From a virus (taxonomy: Duplodnaviria > Heunggongvirae > Uroviricota > Caudoviricetes), in IMG/VR virus record IMGVR_UViG_2636415673_000003: a stretch of 26,193 nucleotides of DNA. One strand, 5' to 3'. This document shows positions 17,088 to 26,193 of the stretch, one piece after another. The first letter of the stretch is position 1, and each line of letters opens with the position of its first letter. The notes beneath the pieces are model-generated. The model was given only the letters and a program-made list of their open reading frames with translations. It had not been told where the DNA came from and ran no database searches. Both the position numbers and the translations under genes were made by a program.

Positions 17088-17510
17088 TTAATGAACAATG
17101 ACAGAATCGTCGGAAGAACCGCCGCCGCTGAAATGCGCTTTCCGGTAAACGGCTTGGACTGCATCATCATGCGCATCAATTGCCGTACTTAACGCTTCCT
17201 GCGCCGCCAGTAATGCACGGCGTTCCAGGGTATCGAAGATGCAGAGTCGGTGACGCAGCTCGCGCGGAAGGATTGCCAGAATTGCTGGGATCAGCTTCTG
17301 AATTTTTTCTCTTTGCGTTTTCGTTTCACCTTTCAACCAACGGTGATAGATATTCTGCTGATTGTTCCAGTCCTTGCCTGGAACCAGGGGCAATTCGCCG
17401 CCCCCCTGGCGCAGATATTCTTCAGTAATTGCATTGGCTACCCATGCCTGCCCTTTTTCGGCTGCTAGGGCAAACAACACTGATTCGATGTGCTCATGCT
17501 TGATTTTCAT
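17088..17510 (-). CDS. ydaT: YdaT (cII-position protein of Rac; toxic when derepressed)
   Basis: 140 aa, matches K-12 YdaT as recalled; second gene of the rightward early operon. Confidence 0.85.
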   Translation of the reverse strand: MKIKHEHIESVLFALAAEKGQAWVANAITEEYLRQGGGELPLVPGKDWNNQQNIYHRWLKGETKTQREKIQKLIPAILAILPRELRHRLCIFDTLERRALLAAQEALSTAIDAHDDAVQAVYRKAHFSGGGSSDDSVIVH

Positions 17511-17532
17511 GAATCATTTGCCTCTTGATGTT

Positions 17533-17829
17533 TCAGGTATGATCAAATGAGGATTTGTTACTGTCATTTAGTTGCTTCACTGACATATTCTGCGAACAAC
17601 ATGCCGAACGTCGTAAATATGACCAGTCAATATCAGGACGAAGTTCTTCGCACAGAACCTCACCTCTTGTTGCACGTTCAATTGCTGGACATCTCTCGGC
17701 AGGCAATTGACGTACCCCTTTGATCCATTGATTTACGCTTGGAGGTGATACACCTAAAAGCCTAGCCATTGCTGATTGCCCACCGACAACAGCACAAGCT
17801 TGCTTGAATGAATAGTTCTCTTTTTTCAT
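17533..17829 (-). CDS. ydaS: YdaS, Cro-like HTH regulator (toxic when derepressed)
   Basis: 98 aa with an HTH (QSAMARLLGVSPPSVNQWIKG); divergent from racR. Confidence 0.85.
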   Translation of the reverse strand: MKKENYSFKQACAVVGGQSAMARLLGVSPPSVNQWIKGVRQLPAERCPAIERATRGEVLCEELRPDIDWSYLRRSACCSQNMSVKQLNDSNKSSFDHT

Positions 17830-17858
17830 CGAATGAACTCCAAAAACACACAGAAATA

Positions 17859-17940
17859 TTAGGCGACGCCTAACGCAATTGTCAATAGGCTGTGCCTAAT
17901 GCGGTAAGAGTAGGGATTGCCTAATGTAATGCGCATAGGA
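17859..17940. promoter_or_regulatory. Rightward operator cluster (OR-like) with divergent racR / ydaS promoters
   Basis: TTAGGCgacGCCTAA (17859-17873, perfect 6-3-6 palindrome), aTAGGCtgtGCCTAAt (17885-17900), and further GCCTAA/TAGG half-sites at 17917-17940. Confidence 0.55.
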
Positions 17941-17952
17941 GAATATTAAGCA

Positions 17953-18429
17953 ATGCTTAGTGGTAAAGACTTAGGCCGAGCGATAGAGCAGGCCATTAAC
18001 AAAAAAATCGCATCGGGATCCGTCAAATCAAAGGCGGAGGTCGCACGCCACTTCAAAGTCCAACCACCATCAATTTATGACTGGATTAAGAAAGGCTCTA
18101 TAAGTAAAGATAAACTTCCAGAATTATGGCGTTTCTTTTCTGATGTTGTTGGTCCAGAGCATTGGGGGCTTAACGAATACCCCATACCAACCCCCACCAA
18201 TTCAGATACAAAAAGTGAACTTTTAGATATAAACAACCTTTATCAAGCAGCCTCTGATGAAATAAGAGCGATTGTAGCTTTCCTGTTATCTGGAAATGCT
18301 ACAGAACCAGATTGGGTTGACCACGATGTTCGCGCCTACATAGCAGCGATGGAAATGAAAGTGGGTAAGTATCTGAAAGCTCTAGAATCTGAACGGAAAA
18401 GCCAGAACATCACAAAAACTGGAACTTAA
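17953..18429 (+). CDS. racR: RacR prophage repressor
   Basis: 158 aa with an N-terminal HTH (KSKAEVARHFKVQPPSIYDWIKKG); matches K-12 RacR as recalled. Confidence 0.9.
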   Translation: MLSGKDLGRAIEQAINKKIASGSVKSKAEVARHFKVQPPSIYDWIKKGSISKDKLPELWRFFSDVVGPEHWGLNEYPIPTPTNSDTKSELLDINNLYQAASDEIRAIVAFLLSGNATEPDWVDHDVRAYIAAMEMKVGKYLKALESERKSQNITKTGT

Positions 18430-18490
18430 ACTTATATGGTCTGACGGAAAACTCCTGGATTCCGTTATTTAACCCCCCCATCACTTTCTG

Positions 18491-18558
18491 CTGTCGCCAT
18501 CACCTATTAGGTTACGCTCAAAACATTAGGCATAGCCTATTGACAATCAATTAGGCAT
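18491..18558 (+). promoter_or_regulatory. Leftward-operon promoter (pL-like, TTGACA-17-TATAGT) overlapped by operators (OL-like)
   Basis: TTGACA at 18530-18535, TATAGT at 18553-18558 with a 17-nt spacer. TTAGGCataGCCTAT (18516-18530) and TTAGGCATTACCTATAG (18541-18557) overlap the -35 and spacer; CCTATTAGG lies at about 18493-18501. Confidence 0.55.
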
Positions 18559-18737
18559 TACCTATAGTTCCAGCATACCACCCACCCCGCCCCACAGAAC
18601 GCCGGGCAATACTTCGAGTTACCAGGCAGTGGTAAGGGGTTAAGTAGCCAGCCCGAGGCGTATGAACATGACGGCGGGATTCAAATTTTGCAGTGCAGCA
18701 GTTAGTTCCGCCACCCGGCGTTAAGGGGAGAGATAAG

Positions 18738-18872
18738 ATGGTGCATTACGAAGTAGTTCAGTATTTGATGGATTGTTGCGGTATCACTTACAACCAGGCT
18801 GTGCAGGCTTTACGCAGCAACGCCTGGGATCTCTGGCAGGCAGAAGTCGCTATACGTAGCAACAAGATGTGA
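18738..18872 (+). CDS. ydaG: YdaG (44 aa) small Rac protein
   Basis: ATG 18738 with AGGGGAGAG upstream; MVHYEVVQYLMDCCGITYNQAVQALRSNAWDLWQAEVAIRSNKM. Too short for the ORF track. Confidence 0.7.
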   Translation: MVHYEVVQYLMDCCGITYNQAVQALRSNAWDLWQAEVAIRSNKM

Positions 18873-18882
18873 GATTCGCAAA

Positions 18883-19038
18883 ATGCAAAAAATCGACCTC
18901 GGCAACAACGAATCCCTGGTGTGCGGCGTGTTCCCCAACCAGGATGGAACGTTCACTGCCATGACGTATACCAAAAGCAAAACATTTAAAACCGAAACTG
19001 GTGCGCGCCGATGGTTGGAGAAGTACACAGTAAGCTAA
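18883..19038 (+). CDS. ydaF: YdaF (51 aa) small Rac protein
   Basis: MQKIDLGNNESLVCGVFPNQDGTFTAMTYTKSKTFKTETGARRWLEKYTVS; its stop overlaps the convergent sieB stop by 4 nt. Confidence 0.7.
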   Translation: MQKIDLGNNESLVCGVFPNQDGTFTAMTYTKSKTFKTETGARRWLEKYTVS

Positions 19039-19523
19039 CGATTAAAACGTCTACTCCTGCTGTTCCAGAATAACTTCATAAAATGGGAGTATTTTTCGGT
19101 GACGAGATAATAAGAACAGTTTGCGCTATCACTCTGATGTTGAATGATGCCCTTCCGTTCTAATTTTTTCATAACCGGGTTACGGCAAGGAGAAGTGATA
19201 ATAAGATTTCCTGTTTTAAGGAAATCTTTAAATACAGCGATTTCTTTCTCAGATAAACGAAGCAATACTCGTTGCTCTGGTAGTAATGAATAATGCTTTT
19301 GAATATGTGCTCGCAATCTTGAGAAGGAAATGGCGACCACGAAAGAAAAGGCAAAAACGATAATCTGAAAGAGCCAAGGTATTTCAGTATAAGCATTGAA
19401 TGCGACAGTAAACTCTTTCGGTATCAGCCAGAGAGTGAGACCAAAAATGATAATCGTATACATAAGTCTTTCGAGTGGCTCGTTAGCAAAAAGTTTCAAT
19501 AATGGAGTAAATACATCCAACAT
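19035..19523 (-). CDS. sieB: SieB superinfection exclusion protein B
   Basis: From MLDVFTPLLKLFANEPLE... the sequence matches Rac SieB (162 aa) as recalled, with TM segments. The ORF track's N-terminal extension to 19646 was not adopted. Confidence 0.85.
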   Translation of the reverse strand: MLDVFTPLLKLFANEPLERLMYTIIIFGLTLWLIPKEFTVAFNAYTEIPWLFQIIVFAFSFVVAISFSRLRAHIQKHYSLLPEQRVLLRLSEKEIAVFKDFLKTGNLIITSPCRNPVMKKLERKGIIQHQSDSANCSYYLVTEKYSHFMKLFWNSRSRRFNR

Positions 19524-19963
19524 ATCAATAACTCTCAACTGTAAGGGTATTGAAATGTTAACACAAGCTCTCGCTGTAGGGGTATAGCCGAGACCACCGA
19601 AGCCCGGAGGTGGTGAAATAAAACCGGGCACAACACGAAGGCGCATTTCCGATATCCATAAAGAGTCGGTCTTGTCTGTTAAATTTAAATGGTGGGAGTG
19701 CGCCTCCGGTTGTAAATAACGACATTGCTGTGTGTAGTCCTGGCGGCATCAGTTTTTTCTTGAAGTTCGGCTGATGTCCGCCCTTTTTTAAGTGAATTTT
19801 GTGATGCGGTGAATGCGGCTAAGCGCACGTGGCACAGTTAAAAGTCATGTTAGTCCTTATTGGTTTGGGTGGGAAAGCCGACTGTAATTGTTAACTGGTT
19901 GCAGTCACCTGGAGGCACCAGGCACCGCATCAACAAAGTTCATTTGTAAAAATGGAGATAATT

Positions 19964-20185
19964 ATGATTGCACATCACTTCGGAACTGATGAAATACCAC
20001 GTCAGTGTGTGACTCCTGGCGATTATGTTCTTCATGAAGGCCGGACATATATTGCCTCGGCAAACAATATTAAAAAGCGAAAACTATATATTCGTAACCT
20101 GACCACAAAAACATGCATTACTGACCGCATGATTAAAGTCTTCCTCGGTCGTGATGGTTTACCTGTAAAGGCGGAGTCATGGTGA
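19964..20185 (+). CDS. kilR: KilR, FtsZ-inhibiting killing protein
   Basis: [42 protein letters not shown]... matches K-12 KilR (73 aa) as recalled; GGAG 6 nt upstream. Confidence 0.9.
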
Positions 20186-20355
20186 TGACTAAGAAAATAA
20201 AATGTGCTTACCACCTTTGCAAAAAAGACGTTGAAGAAAGCAAAGCTATTGAAAGAATGCTTCACTTCATGCACGGGATTTTATCAAAAGACGAACCGAG
20301 AAAATATTGCAGTGAATCTTGTGCCGAAAAAGACCAGATGGCACATGAACTTTAA
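20185..20355 (+). CDS. ydaE: YdaE (56 aa) Cys-rich zinc-binding protein
   Basis: [56 protein letters not shown]; start overlaps the kilR stop. Too short for the ORF track. Confidence 0.75.
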   Translation: MTKKIKCAYHLCKKDVEESKAIERMLHFMHGILSKDEPRKYCSESCAEKDQMAHEL

Positions 20356-20429
20356 TTAATTGACTATTCGAAACTGAATTTATGCCAGAAATGGCAGGTA
20401 TTCGCTCAGCCTTAATTAAGGAGAAAAAC

Positions 20430-20705
20430 ATGATTACCAATTATGAAGCCACTGTTGTAACTACCGATGACATTGTTCACGAGGTGAATCTGGAAGGAAA
20501 GCGCATTGGCTACGTAATTAAAACAGAAAATAAAGAAACCCCATTCACTGTGGTTGATATCGATGGTCCATCAGGCAACGTAAAAACACTTGATGAAGGT
20601 GTCAAAAAAATGTGCCTGGTGCATATCGGAAAGAATCTGCCCGCAGAAAAAAAAGCCGAATTTCTGGCAACTCTAATTGCAATGAAATTAAAAGGTGAAA
20701 TCTGA
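20430..20705 (+). CDS. racC: RacC
   Basis: From MITNYEATVVTTDDIVHEVNLEGKRIGYVIK... (91 aa), matching K-12 RacC as recalled; AAGGAG upstream. Confidence 0.85.
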   Translation: MITNYEATVVTTDDIVHEVNLEGKRIGYVIKTENKETPFTVVDIDGPSGNVKTLDEGVKKMCLVHIGKNLPAEKKAEFLATLIAMKLKGEI

Positions 20706-20711
20706 AAGAAA

Positions 20712-20734
20712 TAGCCTGCGTATGGCGCAGGCTA
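20712..20734 (+). other. Perfect 9-bp stem hairpin (TAGCCTGCG-TATGG-CGCAGGCTA) between racC and recE
   Basis: Read directly from the sequence. No U-tract follows, so it may be a structural barrier or RNase site rather than an intrinsic terminator. Confidence 0.4.
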
Positions 20735-20806
20735 TGAACAGTGTGTATCCGGCAAGATCATTCACTGAACAAAACGAATTTTAATCTGAGTTGAGGTTAA
20801 AAAACA

Positions 20807-23407
20807 ATGAGCACAAAACCACTCTTCCTGTTACGGAAAGCGAAAAAATCATCCGGTGAACCTGACGTCGTCCTGTGGGCAAGCAACGATTTTGAATCGA
20901 CCTGTGCCACTCTGGACTACCTGATCGTTAAGTCAGGTAAAAAACTGAGCAGCTATTTTAAAGCTGTTGCCACGAATTTTCCTGTCGTTAATGACCTGCC
21001 CGCTGAAGGTGAGATCGATTTTACCTGGAGTGAACGCTATCAACTCAGCAAAGACTCCATGACATGGGAACTAAAACCGGGAGCAGCACCAGACAACGCT
21101 CACTATCAAGGCAATACCAACGTCAACGGCGAAGACATGACTGAGATTGAGGAGAATATGCTACTCCCAATTTCTGGCCAGGAACTGCCCATTCGTTGGC
21201 TTGCTCAACACGGCAGCGAAAAACCGGTAACGCACGTTTCACGCGACGGACTCCAGGCATTACACATTGCTCGGGCTGAAGAACTACCGGCTGTTACTGC
21301 CCTGGCTGTTTCCCACAAAACCAGCCTGCTCGACCCGCTGGAAATTCGCGAACTCCACAAACTGGTTCGTGACACTGACAAAGTTTTCCCTAATCCTGGT
21401 AATTCAAACCTGGGACTGATAACTGCTTTTTTCGAAGCATACCTGAACGCTGACTACACCGATCGAGGACTGCTGACAAAAGAGTGGATGAAGGGTAATC
21501 GTGTTTCACACATCACTCGCACGGCTTCCGGTGCTAATGCTGGCGGCGGAAACCTCACCGATCGCGGCGAAGGTTTCGTACACGATCTGACGTCACTGGC
21601 GCGCGACGTAGCCACTGGCGTACTGGCCCGTTCAATGGATCTGGACATCTATAACCTTCATCCGGCACACGCTAAACGCATTGAGGAAATTATCGCTGAA
21701 AATAAACCGCCCTTTTCTGTTTTCCGCGACAAATTCATCACCATGCCTGGCGGGCTGGATTATTCCCGCGCCATCGTGGTTGCGTCCGTAAAAGAAGCAC
21801 CAATTGGGATCGAGGTCATCCCCGCGCACGTCACTGAATATCTGAACAAAGTACTGACTGAAACCGATCATGCCAACCCTGATCCGGAAATCGTGGATAT
21901 TGCCTGCGGTCGCTCCTCTGCCCCGATGCCGCAGCGAGTAACAGAAGAAGGAAAACAGGATGATGAAGAAAAACCGCAACCATCTGGAACAACGGCAGTT
22001 GAACAGGGAGAGGCTGAAACAATGGAACCGGACGCAACTGAACATCATCAGGACACGCAGCCGCTGGATGCTCAGTCACAGGTAAATTCTATTGATGCGA
22101 AATATCAGGAACTGCGGGCAGAACTCCATGAAGCCCGGAAAAACATTCCATCAAAAGATCCTGTCGATGCCGATAAATTGCTTGCTGCATCACGTGGTGA
22201 ATTTGTTGACGGAATTAGCGACCCGAACGATCCGAAATGGGTAAAGGGGATCCAGACTCGCGATTGTGTGTACCAGAACCAGCCAGAAACGGAAAAAACC
22301 AGCCCGGATATGAATCAACCTGAGCCAGTAGTGCAACAGGAACCGGAAATAGCCTGCAATGCCTGCGGCCAGACTGGCGGGGATAACTGCCCTGACTGTG
22401 GTGCGGTGATGGGCGACGCAACATACCAGGAAACATTCGATGAAGAGAGTCAGGTTGAAGCTAAGGAAAATGATCCGGAGGAAATGGAAGGCGCTGAACA
22501 TCCGCACAATGAGAATGCTGGCAGCGATCCGCATCGCGATTGCAGTGATGAAACTGGCGAAGTCGCAGATCCCGTAATCGTAGAAGACATAGAGCCAGGT
22601 ATTTATTACGGAATTTCGAATGAGAATTACCACGCGGGTCCCGGTGTCAGTAAGTCTCAGCTCGATGACATTGCTGATACTCCGGCACTATATTTGTGGC
22701 GTAAAAATGCCCCCGTTGACACCACAAAGACAAAAACGCTCGATTTAGGAACCGCTTTCCACTGCCGGGTACTTGAACCGGAAGAATTCAGTAACCGCTT
22801 TATCGTAGCACCTGAATTTAACCGCCGTACAAACGCCGGAAAAGAAGAAGAGAAAGCGTTTCTGATGGAATGCGCAAGCACAGGAAAAACAGTTATCACT
22901 GCGGAAGAAGGCCGGAAAATTGAACTCATGTATCAAAGCGTTATGGCTTTGCCGCTGGGGCAATGGCTTGTTGAAAGCGCCGGACACGCTGAATCATCAA
23001 TTTACTGGGAAGATCCTGAAACAGGAATTTTGTGTCGGTGCCGTCCGGACAAAATTATCCCTGAATTTCACTGGATCATGGACGTGAAAACTACGGCGGA
23101 TATTCAACGATTCAAAACCGCTTATTACGACTACCGCTATCACGTTCAGGATGCATTCTACAGTGACGGTTATGAAGCACAGTTTGGAGTGCAGCCAACT
23201 TTCGTTTTTCTGGTTGCCAGCACAACTATTGAATGCGGACGTTATCCGGTTGAAATTTTCATGATGGGCGAAGAAGCAAAACTGGCAGGTCAACAGGAAT
23301 ATCACCGCAATCTGCGAACCCTGTCTGACTGCCTGAATACCGATGAATGGCCAGCTATTAAGACATTATCACTGCCCCGCTGGGCTAAGGAATATGCAAA
23401 TGACTAA
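20807..23407 (+). CDS. recE: RecE, exonuclease VIII
   Basis: 866 aa, same length as K-12 RecE; C-terminal nuclease domain with conserved acidic motifs. Confidence 0.95.
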
Positions 23408-24209
23408 GCAACCACCAATCGCAAAAGCCGATCTGCAAAAAACTCAGGGAAACCGTGCACCAGCAGCAGTTAAAAATAGCGACGTGATTAGTTTTATTAA
23501 CCAGCCATCAATGAAAGAGCAACTGGCAGCAGCTCTTCCACGCCATATGACGGCTGAACGTATGATCCGTATCGCCACCACAGAAATTCGTAAAGTTCCG
23601 GCGTTAGGAAACTGTGACACTATGAGTTTTGTCAGTGCGATCGTACAGTGTTCACAGCTCGGACTTGAGCCAGGTAGCGCCCTCGGTCATGCATATTTAC
23701 TGCCTTTTGGTAATAAAAACGAAAAGAGCGGTAAAAAGAACGTTCAGCTAATCATTGGCTATCGCGGCATGATTGATCTGGCTCGCCGTTCTGGTCAAAT
23801 CGCCAGCCTGTCAGCCCGTGTTGTCCGTGAAGGTGACGAGTTTAGCTTCGAATTTGGCCTTGATGAAAAGTTAATACACCGCCCGGGAGAAAACGAAGAT
23901 GCCCCGGTTACCCACGTCTATGCTGTCGCAAGACTGAAAGACGGAGGTACTCAGTTTGAAGTTATGACGCGCAAACAGATTGAGCTGGTGCGCAGCCTGA
24001 GTAAAGCTGGTAATAACGGGCCGTGGGTAACTCACTGGGAAGAAATGGCAAAGAAAACGGCTATTCGTCGCCTGTTCAAATATCTGCCCGTATCAATTGA
24101 GATCCAGCGTGCAGTATCAATGGATGAAAAGGAACCACTGACAATCGATCCTGCAGATTCCTCTGTATTAACCGGGGAATACAGTGTAATCGATAATTCA
24201 GAGGAATAA
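23400..24209 (+). CDS. recT: RecT single-strand annealing recombinase
   Basis: From [14 protein letters not shown]... (269 aa), overlapping the recE stop by 8 nt, as in K-12. Confidence 0.95.
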
Positions 24210-24265
24210 TTCAGCCTGGCGGTGTAATGCACCGCCAACTTGAAATATTTTTTATGAGAAAAATT

Positions 24266-24460
24266 ATGAGATATGACAATGTTAAACCATGTCCATTTTG
24301 TGGTTGTCCATCAGTAACGGTGAAAGTCATTTCAGGATATTACCGAGCGAAGTGTAACGGATGCGAATCCCGAACCGGTTATGGTGGAAGTGAAAAAGAA
24401 GCACTCGAAAGATGGAATAAACGAACCACTGGAAATAATAACGGAGGTGTTCATGTATAA
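24266..24460 (+). CDS. ralR: RalR (Lar) restriction-alleviation protein / type I toxin DNase
   Basis: MRYDNVKPCPFCGCPSVTVKVISGYYRAKCNGCESRTGYGGSEKEALERWNKR... (64 aa). Confidence 0.9.
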   Translation: MRYDNVKPCPFCGCPSVTVKVISGYYRAKCNGCESRTGYGGSEKEALERWNKRTTGNNNGGVHV

Positions 24461-24641
24461 AATTACCGCCACTATTGAAAAGGAAGGTGGCACTCCTACT
24501 AACTGGACAAGATATTCAAAATCTAAACTAACGAAATCAGAATGCGAAAAAATGCTCTCAGGTAAAAAAGAAGCAGGCGTTTCCAGAGAGCAGAAAGTAA
24601 AACTGATAAATTTTAATTGCGAGAAACTTCAGTCCTCGTGA
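24453..24641 (+). CDS. ydaC: YdaC (DUF1187-type) small protein
   Basis: MYKITATIEKEGGTPTNWTRYSKSKLTKSECEKMLSGKKEAG...; ACGGAGGTG upstream; overlaps the ralR stop. Confidence 0.8.
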   Translation: MYKITATIEKEGGTPTNWTRYSKSKLTKSECEKMLSGKKEAGVSREQKVKLINFNCEKLQSS

Positions 24642-24740
24642 ATTGCATTGTATTCAAATTAAAACTTCATAGCTGATTATTAATAATCAACATCGGGCGT
24701 CAATTTCAGTCTAACATTGGCGCCTGCCAGAGGTGATGCG

Positions 24741-24956
24741 ATGGCACAAGTAATCTTTAATGAAGAGTGGATGGTTGAATACGGCCTGATGCTTCGCACT
24801 GGTCTGGGGGCCAGACAAATTGAAGCATACCGCCAGAACTGTTGGGTGGAGGGCTTCCACTTCAAACGAGTATCTCCTTTAGGTAAGCCAGACAGCAAAC
24901 GAGGGATTATCTGGTACAACTATCCAAAGATAAATCAGTTTATCAAAGACTCATGA
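24741..24956 (+). CDS. xisR: Excisionase XisR (YdaQ)
   Basis: From [44 protein letters not shown]..., directly upstream of the integrase. Confidence 0.85.
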
Positions 24957-24957
24957 T

Positions 24958-26193
24958 ATGTCTAAATTACCAACAGGTGTCGAGATTAGAGGTAGATACA
25001 TTCGCATCTGGTTCATGTTTCGAGGAAAACGATGTCGGGAAACATTAAAAGGCTGGGAGATTACAAACAGTAATATTAAAAAGGCCGGAAATTTAAGAGC
25101 GCTGATAGTTCATGAAATAAACTCCGGTGAATTTGAGTATTTAAGACGTTTTCCCCAGTCCAGCACTGGGGCAAAAATGGTGACAACGAGAGTCATAAAA
25201 ACGTTCGGAGAGCTTTGTGATATCTGGACAAAAATTAAAGAGACAGAGTTAACAACAAACACAATAAAGAAAACGAAATCACAATTAAAAACACTCAGAA
25301 TAATAATTTGTGAAAGTACCCTGATATCACATATTCGTTATAGCGATATCTTAAACTACCGGAATGAACTGCTGCATGGAGAAACGCTTTACCTGGATAA
25401 TCCAAGATCCAACAAAAAAGGAAGAACCGTGCGCACAGTTGATAACTATATCGCCCTGCTCTGTTCGCTGTTACGTTTTGCGTATCAGTCGGGATTTATA
25501 TCAACCAAACCATTTGAAGGAGTAAAAAAATTACAGCGAAACAGAATAAAGCCTGATCCGTTATCTAAAACAGAATTCAATGCATTAATGGAAAGTGAAA
25601 AAGGACAGAGCCAGAACATGTGGAAATTTGCAGTTTACTCAGGACTTCGTCACGGGGAACTGGCAGCTCTGGCGTGGGAGGATGTGGATCTCGAAAAGGG
25701 AATAGTGAATGTCAGAAGAAACCTGACGATACTTGATATGTTCGGTCCCCCAAAAACAAATGCCGGGATCCGGACAGTAACACTACTGCAGCCTGCTCTT
25801 GAAGCACTGAAGGAGCAATACAAACTGACCGGGCATCATCGCAAAAGCGAAATCACCTTTTATCATCGGGAGTACGGCAGAACCGAAAAGCAAAAACTGC
25901 ATTTTGTTTTCATGCCCAGGGTGTGTAACGGAAAACAAAAACCTTATTACTCGGTAAGCAGTTTGGGGGCAAGGTGGAATGCAGCAGTAAAACGTGCTGG
26001 TATTCGCCGCCGTAATCCGTACCATACGCGGCATACTTTTGCCTGCTGGCTGTTGACGGCAGGAGCGAACCCGGCATTTATAGCCAGCCAAATGGGGCAT
26101 GAAACTGCGCAGATGGTGTATGAAATTTACGGTATGTGGATTGATGACATGAACGACGAACAGATAGCCATGTTGAATGCGCGGTTATCATAG
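24958..26193 (+). CDS. intR: IntR, tyrosine site-specific integrase
   Basis: 411 aa with C-terminal catalytic residues (...HTRHTFACWLL...MGHETAQMVYEIYG); stop TAG is the last codon in the window, so attR lies outside. Confidence 0.95.
   Translation: MSKLPTGVEIRGRYIRIWFMFRGKRCRETLKGWEITNSNIKKAGNLRALIVHEINSGEFEYLRRFPQSSTGAKMVTTRVIKTFGELCDIWTKIKETELTTNTIKKTKSQLKTLRIIICESTLISHIRYSDILNYRNELLHGETLYLDNPRSNKKGRTVRTVDNYIALLCSLLRFAYQSGFISTKPFEGVKKLQRNRIKPDPLSKTEFNALMESEKGQSQNMWKFAVYSGLRHGELAALAWEDVDLEKGIVNVRRNLTILDMFGPPKTNAGIRTVTLLQPALEALKEQYKLTGHHRKSEITFYHREYGRTEKQKLHFVFMPRVCNGKQKPYYSVSSLGARWNAAVKRAGIRRRNPYHTRHTFACWLLTAGANPAFIASQMGHETAQMVYEIYGMWIDDMNDEQIAMLNARLS

Follow-up and report, generated by a model that had tools for sequence, protein, structure and literature searches.

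How does RacR control the excision of its prophage from a distance? racR is among the few essential transcription-factor genes of Escherichia coli K-12. Control of excision by RacR, encoded "far away" from xisR-intR, was left unexplained in a study that also described the RacR regulon as "not yet characterized in detail" and the ydaFG operon as uncharacterised (PMC11014345). Here we analyse the locus in a 26,193-nt stretch of viral DNA (hereafter the window), which is part of a prophage. The original prediction proposed an OR/OL-like arrangement for it, with TTAGGC-N3-GCCTAA operators for RacR on both sides of racR and the downstream set lying on a promoter that faces the operon from ydaG to intR.

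Palindromes and promoters on both sides of racR

Around racR, 1.7 kb of the window match an E. coli chromosome record at 100% identity, and the sequence marks the window as a Rac-type prophage. Within 17820-18600, K-12 MG1655 has a different base at 4/781 positions, with no indels and no half-site affected, so that published K-12 experiments apply directly (K-12 coordinate = 1,438,194 minus window coordinate). The coding sequence of racR (17953-18429, + strand, 158 aa) differs from that of K-12 at two positions. Divergent from it lies the open reading frame of ydaS (17533-17829, - strand; annotated as ydaS in the identical E. coli record), whose Cro-like helix-turn-helix (HTH) product matches the Pfam families YdaS_toxin (2.6e-31) and P22_Cro (3.4e-9).

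Matches to TTAGGCNNNGCCTAA occur at 17859 (0 mismatches), 17885 (1), 17910 (2), 18526 (1), and 18551 (2), and, with 3 mismatches, at 17946-17960, 17971-17985, and 18507-18521. Against Markov shuffles of the window, TTAGGC-N3-GCCTAA is strongly over-represented at up to 1 mismatch (3 observed, 0.07 expected) and at up to 2 mismatches (5 in 26 kb, 0.9 expected), and all five of the latter sites fall in two clusters flanking racR. At up to 3 mismatches the count (11 observed, 9.8 expected) is not above chance, so sites at that level require other support. An independent weight matrix, built from the operators of homologues less than 80% identical and from nothing else, placed 17859 (26.3 bits), 18526 (26.1), 17885 (22.0), 17910 (16.7), and 18551 (16.2) at the top of the window, with at most 0.075 sites expected per window at or above these scores; the site at 17946 was marginal (7.4 bits). 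The two clusters are also joined by a 35-nt inverted repeat, 17878-17912 / 18513-18547, which is 83% complementary. The 6-3-6 palindromes proposed for both sides of racR are therefore present well above expectation, and the positions first given for them were essentially right, if off by ~1-2 nt in places.

The cluster between racR and ydaS is already known as an experimentally established RacR operator region (PMC5700373; PMC9638921), through which RacR represses ydaS-ydaT and itself. Krishnamurthi et al. 2017 (PMC5700373) noted three GCCTAA/TTAGGC repeats in the intergenic region, obtained three complexes of RacR with that region and one with a single-repeat fragment, found RacR enriched there by ChIP-qPCR, and showed repression of a ydaS reporter. 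In DNase I footprints RacR protected the ydaS promoter first and the racR promoters thereafter, three of which were mapped, one of them leaderless; the same work derived the consensus T/ATAGGC-n3-GCCTAT/A and placed one operator across the racR ATG (PMC9638921). The binding assays proposed as a check of 17850-17945, EMSA or footprinting with RacR, had thus been published, with RacR binding, and EMSA, ChIP-qPCR, and DNase I data together already bear out the RacR sites predicted between the two genes (PMC5700373; PMC9638921).

In the window, the ydaS promoter PydaS, the analogue of PR (17856-17885, - strand), consists of a -35 TTGACA at 17885-17880, an 18-nt spacer, and a -10 TAATAT at 17861-17856, matching 10/12 consensus positions. 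The window is identical to K-12 in this region, and the K-12 ydaS promoter with the same hexamers was defined by primer extension and -10 mutagenesis (PMC9638921). OR1 (17859-17873), a perfect TTAGGC-GAC-GCCTAA, sits in the PydaS spacer, overlaps the -10 by 3 nt, and falls within the region protected at the lowest RacR concentration, OR1 being filled at about 30-50 nM RacR (PMC9638921). OR2 (17885-17899; ATAGGC-TGT-GCCTAA) abuts the PydaS -35, with which it has 1 nt in common, and is kept in all homologues examined. OR3 (17910-17924; GTAGGG-ATT-GCCTAA) is an extra site, found in the Escherichia Rac type only. OR4 (17946-17960; TTAAGC-AAT-GCTTAG, 3 mismatches) is weak by sequence and spans the racR ATG; it is the "O3" of PMC9638921 and also the off-target site of C.Csp231I. 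A site at this position begins 7 nt 5' of the ATG in every homologue, and in K-12 the region just 5' of the ATG is protected at higher RacR concentrations (PMC9638921). A further element at 17971-17985, inside racR, combines a perfect left half-site TTAGGC (17971-17976) with a degenerate right half (3 mismatches), and an additional half-site in racR is mentioned in PMC5700373 and PMC9638921. The original description is accordingly to be corrected to four intergenic sites plus a half-site inside racR, in keeping with the "four inverted repeats" of PMC11014345; homologues of 55-75% identity have three upstream sites, E. coli Rac four. Divergent repressor and cro-like genes thus share one operator, repeated over both promoters at 17859, 17885, 17910, and 17946.

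Roughly 100 nt past the racR stop lies the second cluster, with OL2 (18526-18540; TTAGGC-ATA-GCCTAT, 1 mismatch) and OL1 (18551-18565; TTAGGC-ATT-ACCTAT, 2 mismatches) 25 bp apart centre to centre. These two sites overlap a predicted PL analogue (18540-18568, + strand) with a -35 TTGACA at 18540-18545, a 17-nt spacer, and a -10 TATAGT at 18563-18568. With 11/12 consensus positions matched, it outscores every other + strand promoter candidate from racR to intR, which confirms the proposal that the downstream palindromes overlap a near-consensus TTGACA-17-TATAGT facing ydaG to intR. The last T of OL2 is the first T of the -35, and OL1 lies in the spacer with a 3-nt overlap with the -10. This layout mirrors PydaS, with its 1-nt overlap at the -35, its 3-nt overlap at the -10, and its OR1-OR2 centres 26 bp apart. 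On the sequence, both promoters are of one design, in which TTAGGCnnnGCCTAT runs directly into TGACA-n5/6-TTAGGCnnn(G/A)CCTA(A/T) and this into (T)A(T/G)T, the operator half-sites providing the first -35 base and the first three -10 bases. Because promoter and operators overlap in this way, two bound dimers would occlude both hexamers.

A second operator cluster (18526, 18551) is thus found on a promoter co-directional with the repressor gene and leading into the early-left genes, and we infer that RacR binds this pair. A further correction is that the downstream cluster holds two credible sites and not three. The third, at 18507-18521 (TTAGGT-TAC-GCTCAA, 3 mismatches), fails: we rejected this doubtful OL3 because it scores 3.2 bits with 3.2 such sites expected, which is chance level. 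It has no counterpart in Mixta, Morganella, Proteus, Achromobacter, or KpF5. Transcription from PL is predicted to start at ~18575 (K-12 ~1,419,619, minus strand); no coordinate matching this start was found in Cappable-seq supplements, as far as these possibly truncated files extend. Sites or a promoter 3' of racR go unmentioned in PMC5700373, PMC9638921, and PMC11014345. None of the openly searchable papers that mention RacR together with ydaG, an operator, looping, or PL describes a Rac OL or PL, so that the right half of the finding is already published and the left half, as far as could be searched, is undescribed for Rac.

Conservation and exchange of the operator clusters

To set the left pair in an evolutionary context, we compared 11 homologous loci retrieved by protein or whole-region similarity, independently of the site pattern. 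In nine of the 11, two sites 25 bp apart lie downstream on a TTGACA promoter that reads in the direction of the repressor gene. The protein-search set comprised Mixta, Morganella, Proteus, Klebsiella, Achromobacter, and Pigmentiphaga (57-75% identity) and the Klebsiella phage KpF5 (56%). All of these homologues carry a perfect or near-perfect OR1, an OR2, and the site that starts 7 nt before the ATG, whereas the left pair is found in Mixta, Morganella, Proteus, Achromobacter, and KpF5 (about 55-75% protein identity) and has no counterpart within 1.5 kb in Klebsiella R390 and Pigmentiphaga. Where the pair was recovered by protein search, a TTGAC is followed by TAATAT-like -10 boxes, and OL2 is conserved among homologues retrieved by protein search alone. 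Closer to home, an O157:H7 prophage whose racR is 87% identical at the nucleotide level retains all half-sites of the two clusters and differs in their 3-nt centres and in the linkers (e.g., GAC->TTA in OR1 and ATA->GTA in OL2).

A scan of viral contigs with TAGGCNNNGCCTATTGACA yielded 120 loci. A RacR homologue is encoded in 66 of the first 80, and most of the remaining 14 have the match close to the end of a contig or come from a short stored locus. In total, the 120 contigs contain 108 modules of left type and 107 of right type beside RacR homologues (33-100% identity), and the downstream pair is kept, at a spacing of 24-25 bp, from Enterobacterales to Burkholderiales in homologues down to 33%. 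The entropy of half-site positions is 0.05-0.11 bit, versus 0.5-1.25 bit at spacer, linker, and flank positions; since loci were retrieved with one site and the -35 fixed by the scan pattern in one or more of their modules, conservation of those fixed positions is partly by construction. A fair test is offered by the promoter-proximal site, by the second module at each locus, and by the loci that came from the protein search. At the OL1 position, which the retrieval pattern leaves unconstrained, the half-sites are invariant or nearly so and the spacer is variable. Depending on the locus, the left module lies about 60 to 1390 nt past the repressor stop, indicating no fixed-distance constraint between the clusters; in the KpF5 class the longer gap contains a cargo gene with an HSDR_N nuclease-like domain. 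Taken together, the comparative evidence says that the left operator pair is likely to be functional.

A natural exchange experiment is provided by the heteroimmune Rac prophage of strain 0H26. Its homology to the window stops at 17516 (the ydaT start) and comes back, at 99.5% identity, at 18576, which is 7 nt past the PL -10. The intervening 1.06 kb has another HTH repressor gene and another cro-like gene in place of racR and ydaS, and no TTAGGC sites; AGTACAT-type repeats occupy the interval between its divergent genes and recur just before homology resumes. The operator clusters thus travel with the repressor as one exchangeable unit, and 17517-18575, comprising ydaS, the right operators, racR, the left operators, and PL, makes up the whole immunity cassette of this Rac-type lambdoid prophage.

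The sequence that follows position 18576 is common to phages Evi, Tritos, 640R1, 606R7, and 204576 and an Actinobacillus phage. In the five of these six whose leader start could be anchored, a TTGAC-type promoter of the phage's own lies just 5' of the shared leader, and several have phage-specific repeats in the interval between repressor and leader. The position is thus a promoter slot whose operators change along with the repressor, which is what defines an immunity region. The leader of the predicted PL transcript (18576-18734, + strand) has a C-rich 5' part followed by a highly conserved segment that extends to the ydaG ribosome-binding site; in most of 3,843 E. coli records the match covers about 18574-18729 only. 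Its similarity to phage leaders is confined to E. coli-type phages and the one Actinobacillus phage, with no annotation there. No Rfam family was found in 17300-19300 at E up to 1, the single-sequence fold of the leader has z = -1.7, and a consensus fold of 8 sequences with RNAalifold showed no covariation in favour of a structure (covariation term +0.58). Beyond the leader extends the remainder of the left arm (18735-26193, + strand, from the annotation of a 100%-identical record); over the 7.7 kb examined, we found no convincing + strand intrinsic terminator.

Proposed control of the early-left arm

Published RNA data fit a RacR-repressed leftward promoter. Expression of the C protein lowers racR mRNA and raises the co-directional ydaG/ydaF ~40-fold (PMC6765115); the decrease in racR mRNA is ~100-fold (PMC11014345, PMC6765115), and xisR/intR rise ~100-fold only when RacR is low (PMC11014345). 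CRISPRi against racR likewise raises ydaG, kilR, racC, recET, xisR, and intR (bioRxiv 10.64898/2026.09.06.749655). A fall in racR together with a rise in ydaG/ydaF is not possible by read-through and calls for a separate promoter 3' of racR.

We propose that RacR dimers recognise the 15-bp palindrome TTAGGC-N3-GCCTAA on both sides of their gene. At the right, as the literature shows, OR1/OR2 lie over the -10 and the -35 hexamers that serve ydaS-ydaT, and OR3/OR4 over the racR promoters and start codon. The left promoter is directed away from racR into ydaG-ydaF-kilR-racC-recET-ralR-xisR-intR, and RacR at OL1/OL2 would exclude RNA polymerase and so silence the whole early-left arm, with the toxic kilR and the genes for excision. 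PL would fire once RacR falls, which would explain the rise of ydaG through intR and the excision of Rac. YdaS or YdaT could account indirectly for part of the left-arm derepression. We consider it very probable that RacR operates both the right and the left operators, with PL gating the early-left arm, and this is the best explanation of the data; the OR/OL-like reading holds on promoter geometry, on the left pair in distant homologues, and on co-replacement in the heteroimmune Rac.

Other accounts of the same palindromes fare worse. One would have the left arm derepressed by racR read-through or by YdaS/YdaT activation, with the palindromes a non-functional remnant of a duplication, as the 35-nt inverted repeat linking the two regions might suggest; read-through does occur, as Rho is reported to guard against kilR expression by terminating racR transcripts (PMC4150792). 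However, read-through cannot give a ~100-fold decrease in racR with a ~40-fold increase in ydaG/ydaF, and a remnant would neither stay intact in other orders at 33-75% identity, with only its spacers drifting, nor hold a near-perfect promoter in register, all of which makes this account improbable. More improbable still, and rejected here, is that the downstream palindromes are terminators or RNA hairpins that end the racR message. A terminator scan did report stem-loops at 17858-17874 and 18527-18539, but these are weak and on the - strand. The palindrome stems are 5-7 bp long and lie on the strand opposite racR, with no T-run on the + strand; the palindrome also occurs 5' of racR, where a terminator is unneeded; and what is conserved is a DNA half-site pattern whose 3-nt centre is free to vary.

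YdaS is a better contender for these sites, and may well bind at RacR sites. In lambda and CP-933P, repressor and Cro analogue share operators (PMC8630535), ydaS lies inside the swapped cassette, and YdaS reportedly represses its own gene and competes with RacR between racR and ydaS (PMC9638921; PMC11014345). The left sites might then be used mainly by YdaS, for example to damp early-left transcription after induction. We nonetheless regard this as rather unlikely: the half-site kept at the left is the one that RacR protects in footprints, its occurrence among homologues follows that of the conserved N-terminal domain of RacR, and the left-arm genes are silent when RacR is present and YdaS absent. 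Use of the left sites by YdaS would in any case add to repression by RacR at PL, not replace it.

The properties of RacR bear on how such a switch would be thrown. RacR has an N-terminal HTH (a weak HTH_17 match in Pfam) and a short C-terminal domain, has no sequence relatives in the PDB, and is highly conserved across the family from residue 1 to ~80. Pfam finds no Peptidase_S24 domain in it, and RecA-stimulated self-cleavage is therefore not expected. At 158 aa it is a short repressor without a cleavage domain, of the antirepressor-controlled type, and it is listed among the Gifsy/DicA-type short repressors (PMC3121763), which it resembles in its size, in lacking the self-cleavage domain, and in not being SOS-responsive by itself. 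No antirepressor for RacR is known, and the 26-kb window, itself only part of the prophage, contains no LexA box (CTGT-N8-ACAG or near-consensus), although an antirepressor need not be LexA-controlled.

RacR is an octamer by size exclusion, which was interpreted as filling the four right sites and not as bridging (PMC11014345). By analogy with lambda, we tentatively raise a second possibility, to which we give somewhat less than even weight, namely that RacR acts as a bridge: as an octamer on a sizing column, it might join tetramers on OR1-OR2 and OL1-OL2 and so loop out 0.67 kb holding racR. Complete repression of ydaS-ydaT and autoregulation of racR would then depend on the left operator, and the published model of one octamer on four right-hand repeats would need revision. 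An OL mutation would in that case be expected to harm K-12 or to trigger excision of Rac, and PL would be the single RacR-gated entry to kilR, recET, and xisR-intR.

Related immunity regions and significance

The arrangement around racR parallels that of lambda. In both, the repressor gene and a cro analogue diverge from a group of operator sites that covers the promoters of the two genes, a further set of the operator lies on a leftward early promoter that is 3' of and co-directional with the repressor gene, and adjacent sites are 24-26 bp apart. According to the literature, both also have a leaderless repressor message (for racR, PMC9638921) and a repressor that is octameric in solution (for RacR, PMC11014345). 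Cargo between repressor and PL is possible in both as well, with rexAB in lambda and the gene with the HSDR_N domain in the KpF5 class. Differences are also evident. The Rac operator is a 15-bp 6-3-6 palindrome, whereas that of lambda is 17 bp; Rac has four right and two credible left sites (3 + 3 in lambda), and its clusters are 0.67 kb apart (~2.4 kb in lambda). No N gene follows PL in Rac, RacR lacks the Peptidase_S24 domain, and YdaS is reported not to repress racR (PMC9638921). With 2 mismatches in OL1 and OL3 at chance level, the Rac left operator is probably both weaker and smaller than that of lambda.

The closest experimentally studied relative of this architecture is CP-933P of E. 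coli O157:H7, which has the same ydaS/ydaT gene set and an octameric short repressor, PaaR2 (PMC8630535). Its PL, located 3' of the repressor operon, shares both hexamers with its own PR and carries three OL operators; it was tested with gfp reporters, and regulation by PaaR2 and by YdaS has been reported (PMC8630535). CP-933P differs from Rac in that its operators are GTTTAGTAA-type repeats and its repressor is co-transcribed with the paaA2-parE2 toxin-antitoxin pair.

A different kind of relative is found among CI-like repressors of Burkholderiales (Achromobacter L012, Pigmentiphaga L013, and six viral-contig loci), whose first 77 residues are 71-75% identical to RacR. They share with Rac the TTAGGC-N3-GCCTAA sites at the right and, in Achromobacter and the viral-contig loci, at the left too; the six viral-contig homologues (342-366 aa) have both right and left modules. 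Unlike RacR, these proteins are about twice as long (301-366 aa) and, in the two tested (L012 and L013, with N-terminal domains 74-75% identical to that of RacR), carry a C-terminal Peptidase_S24 domain, with which the repressors are probably SOS-cleavable. Since the same N-terminal domain and operators are combined with two kinds of C-terminal half, the DNA-binding domain and its operator-promoter unit form one module, of which Rac has the non-cleavable version, in line with its listing in the Gifsy/DicA type (PMC3121763).

A left operator is what analogy with lambda-like phages would lead one to expect, and the design would be an ordinary lambdoid one, to which the left half adds a modest new detail; it does not overturn the lambda paradigm, is unsurprising in that sense, and will be useful to the few groups working on Rac. 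For Rac biology, a left operator pair on a near-consensus promoter would be a simple, testable answer to how RacR controls excision, and it would offer a separable cis target with which to tell ydaST toxicity from effects of kilR, recET, and excision. More generally, a portable unit of DNA-binding domain, operator, and promoter spans non-cleavable and S24-cleavable repressors in both Gamma- and Betaproteobacteria.

A leader shared beyond the immunity cassette

The predicted left-promoter (PL) transcript would begin with a leader of about 160 nt (window 18576-18734) whose distribution is far wider than that of the immunity cassette. Among 3,843 E. coli records, the majority matched approximately 18574-18729 only, at about 87% identity, and the leader is common to heteroimmune phages too. 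Its 5' start is a C-rich, G-poor stretch, CATACCACCCACCCCGCCCCACAGAAC, which by appearance looks like a Rho loading site, and this is followed by a block with almost no variation, TAAGTAGCCAGCCCGAGGCGTA.GAACATGACGGC. A scan of 17300-19300 returned no Rfam match to the leader, and RNAalifold, run on eight sequences, gave no covariation support for a structure.

Within the conserved leader lies an open frame of 20 codons, MNMTAGFKFCSAAVSSATRR (18662-18724), its 3' end lying immediately upstream of the ribosome-binding site of ydaG. The annotation of phages Tritos and 606R7 has a gene beginning at the ATG equivalent to that of this frame; the gene runs past the leader and gives a product of 77-78 residues, so conservation of the leader may be partly coding.

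The leader is also present, at 76% identity, in Actinobacillus phage vB_Apl-pPE4 (deposited host Actinobacillus pleuropneumoniae), where the early-left region is E. coli Rac-like, with ydaT, a DicA-type repressor, kil and exodeoxyribonuclease VIII. A RacR 100% identical to that of the window is encoded on a 5.2-kb contig of a 'Candidatus Nanosynbacter' MAG (JARKOR010000130.1); this is most likely assembly contamination, with a piece of E. coli Rac assigned to a Saccharibacteria bin.

Right operator and left edge of the cassette

Four sites lie upstream of racR in E. coli Rac, versus three in the homologues of 55-75% identity that we compared (L008, L009, L011 and the Klebsiella phage KpF5 locus, L018). 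The extra site, 17910-17924, has the ATT centre and GCCTAA right half of the homologues' second site, which suggests, from sequence comparison, that it arose by a duplication of about 26 bp inside the operator. Across the 781 nt compared with K-12 there are four differences: the intergenic region differs only at 17903 and 17909, one of which turns the published PracR2 -10 box AGTAAG into GGTAAG, and the other two (18054 and 18384) fall within racR.

TTGATTTTCATGAATCAT (17500-17517), which contains the ydaT start codon, falls at the left boundary of the exchangeable cassette (17516/17517) and is one base off TTGATT-N6-AATCAA, the YdaT-box consensus reported for prophage CP-933P.

Repressor architecture and neighbouring genes in related loci

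In repressors from an Achromobacter MAG (L012, 1501-2595) and Pigmentiphaga (L013, 1501-2403), an N-terminal domain of the RacR type (74-75% identity to RacR across residues 1-77) is joined to a Peptidase_S24 domain, and the same TTAGGC-N3-GCCTAA operators lie upstream of both. Non-cleavable repressors and cleavable ones of the LexA/CI-like kind, with one common DNA specificity, are here related by a domain swap.

In KpF5, the RacR-like repressor gene is separated from the left operator/promoter by a gene (L018, 3149-4303) whose 384-aa product carries an HSDR_N domain, nuclease-like and of the type I restriction kind; about 15 viral contigs in the class of KpF5 share this arrangement. Since rexAB fills this slot in lambda, the KpF5-class gene is possibly a defence gene expressed in the lysogen.
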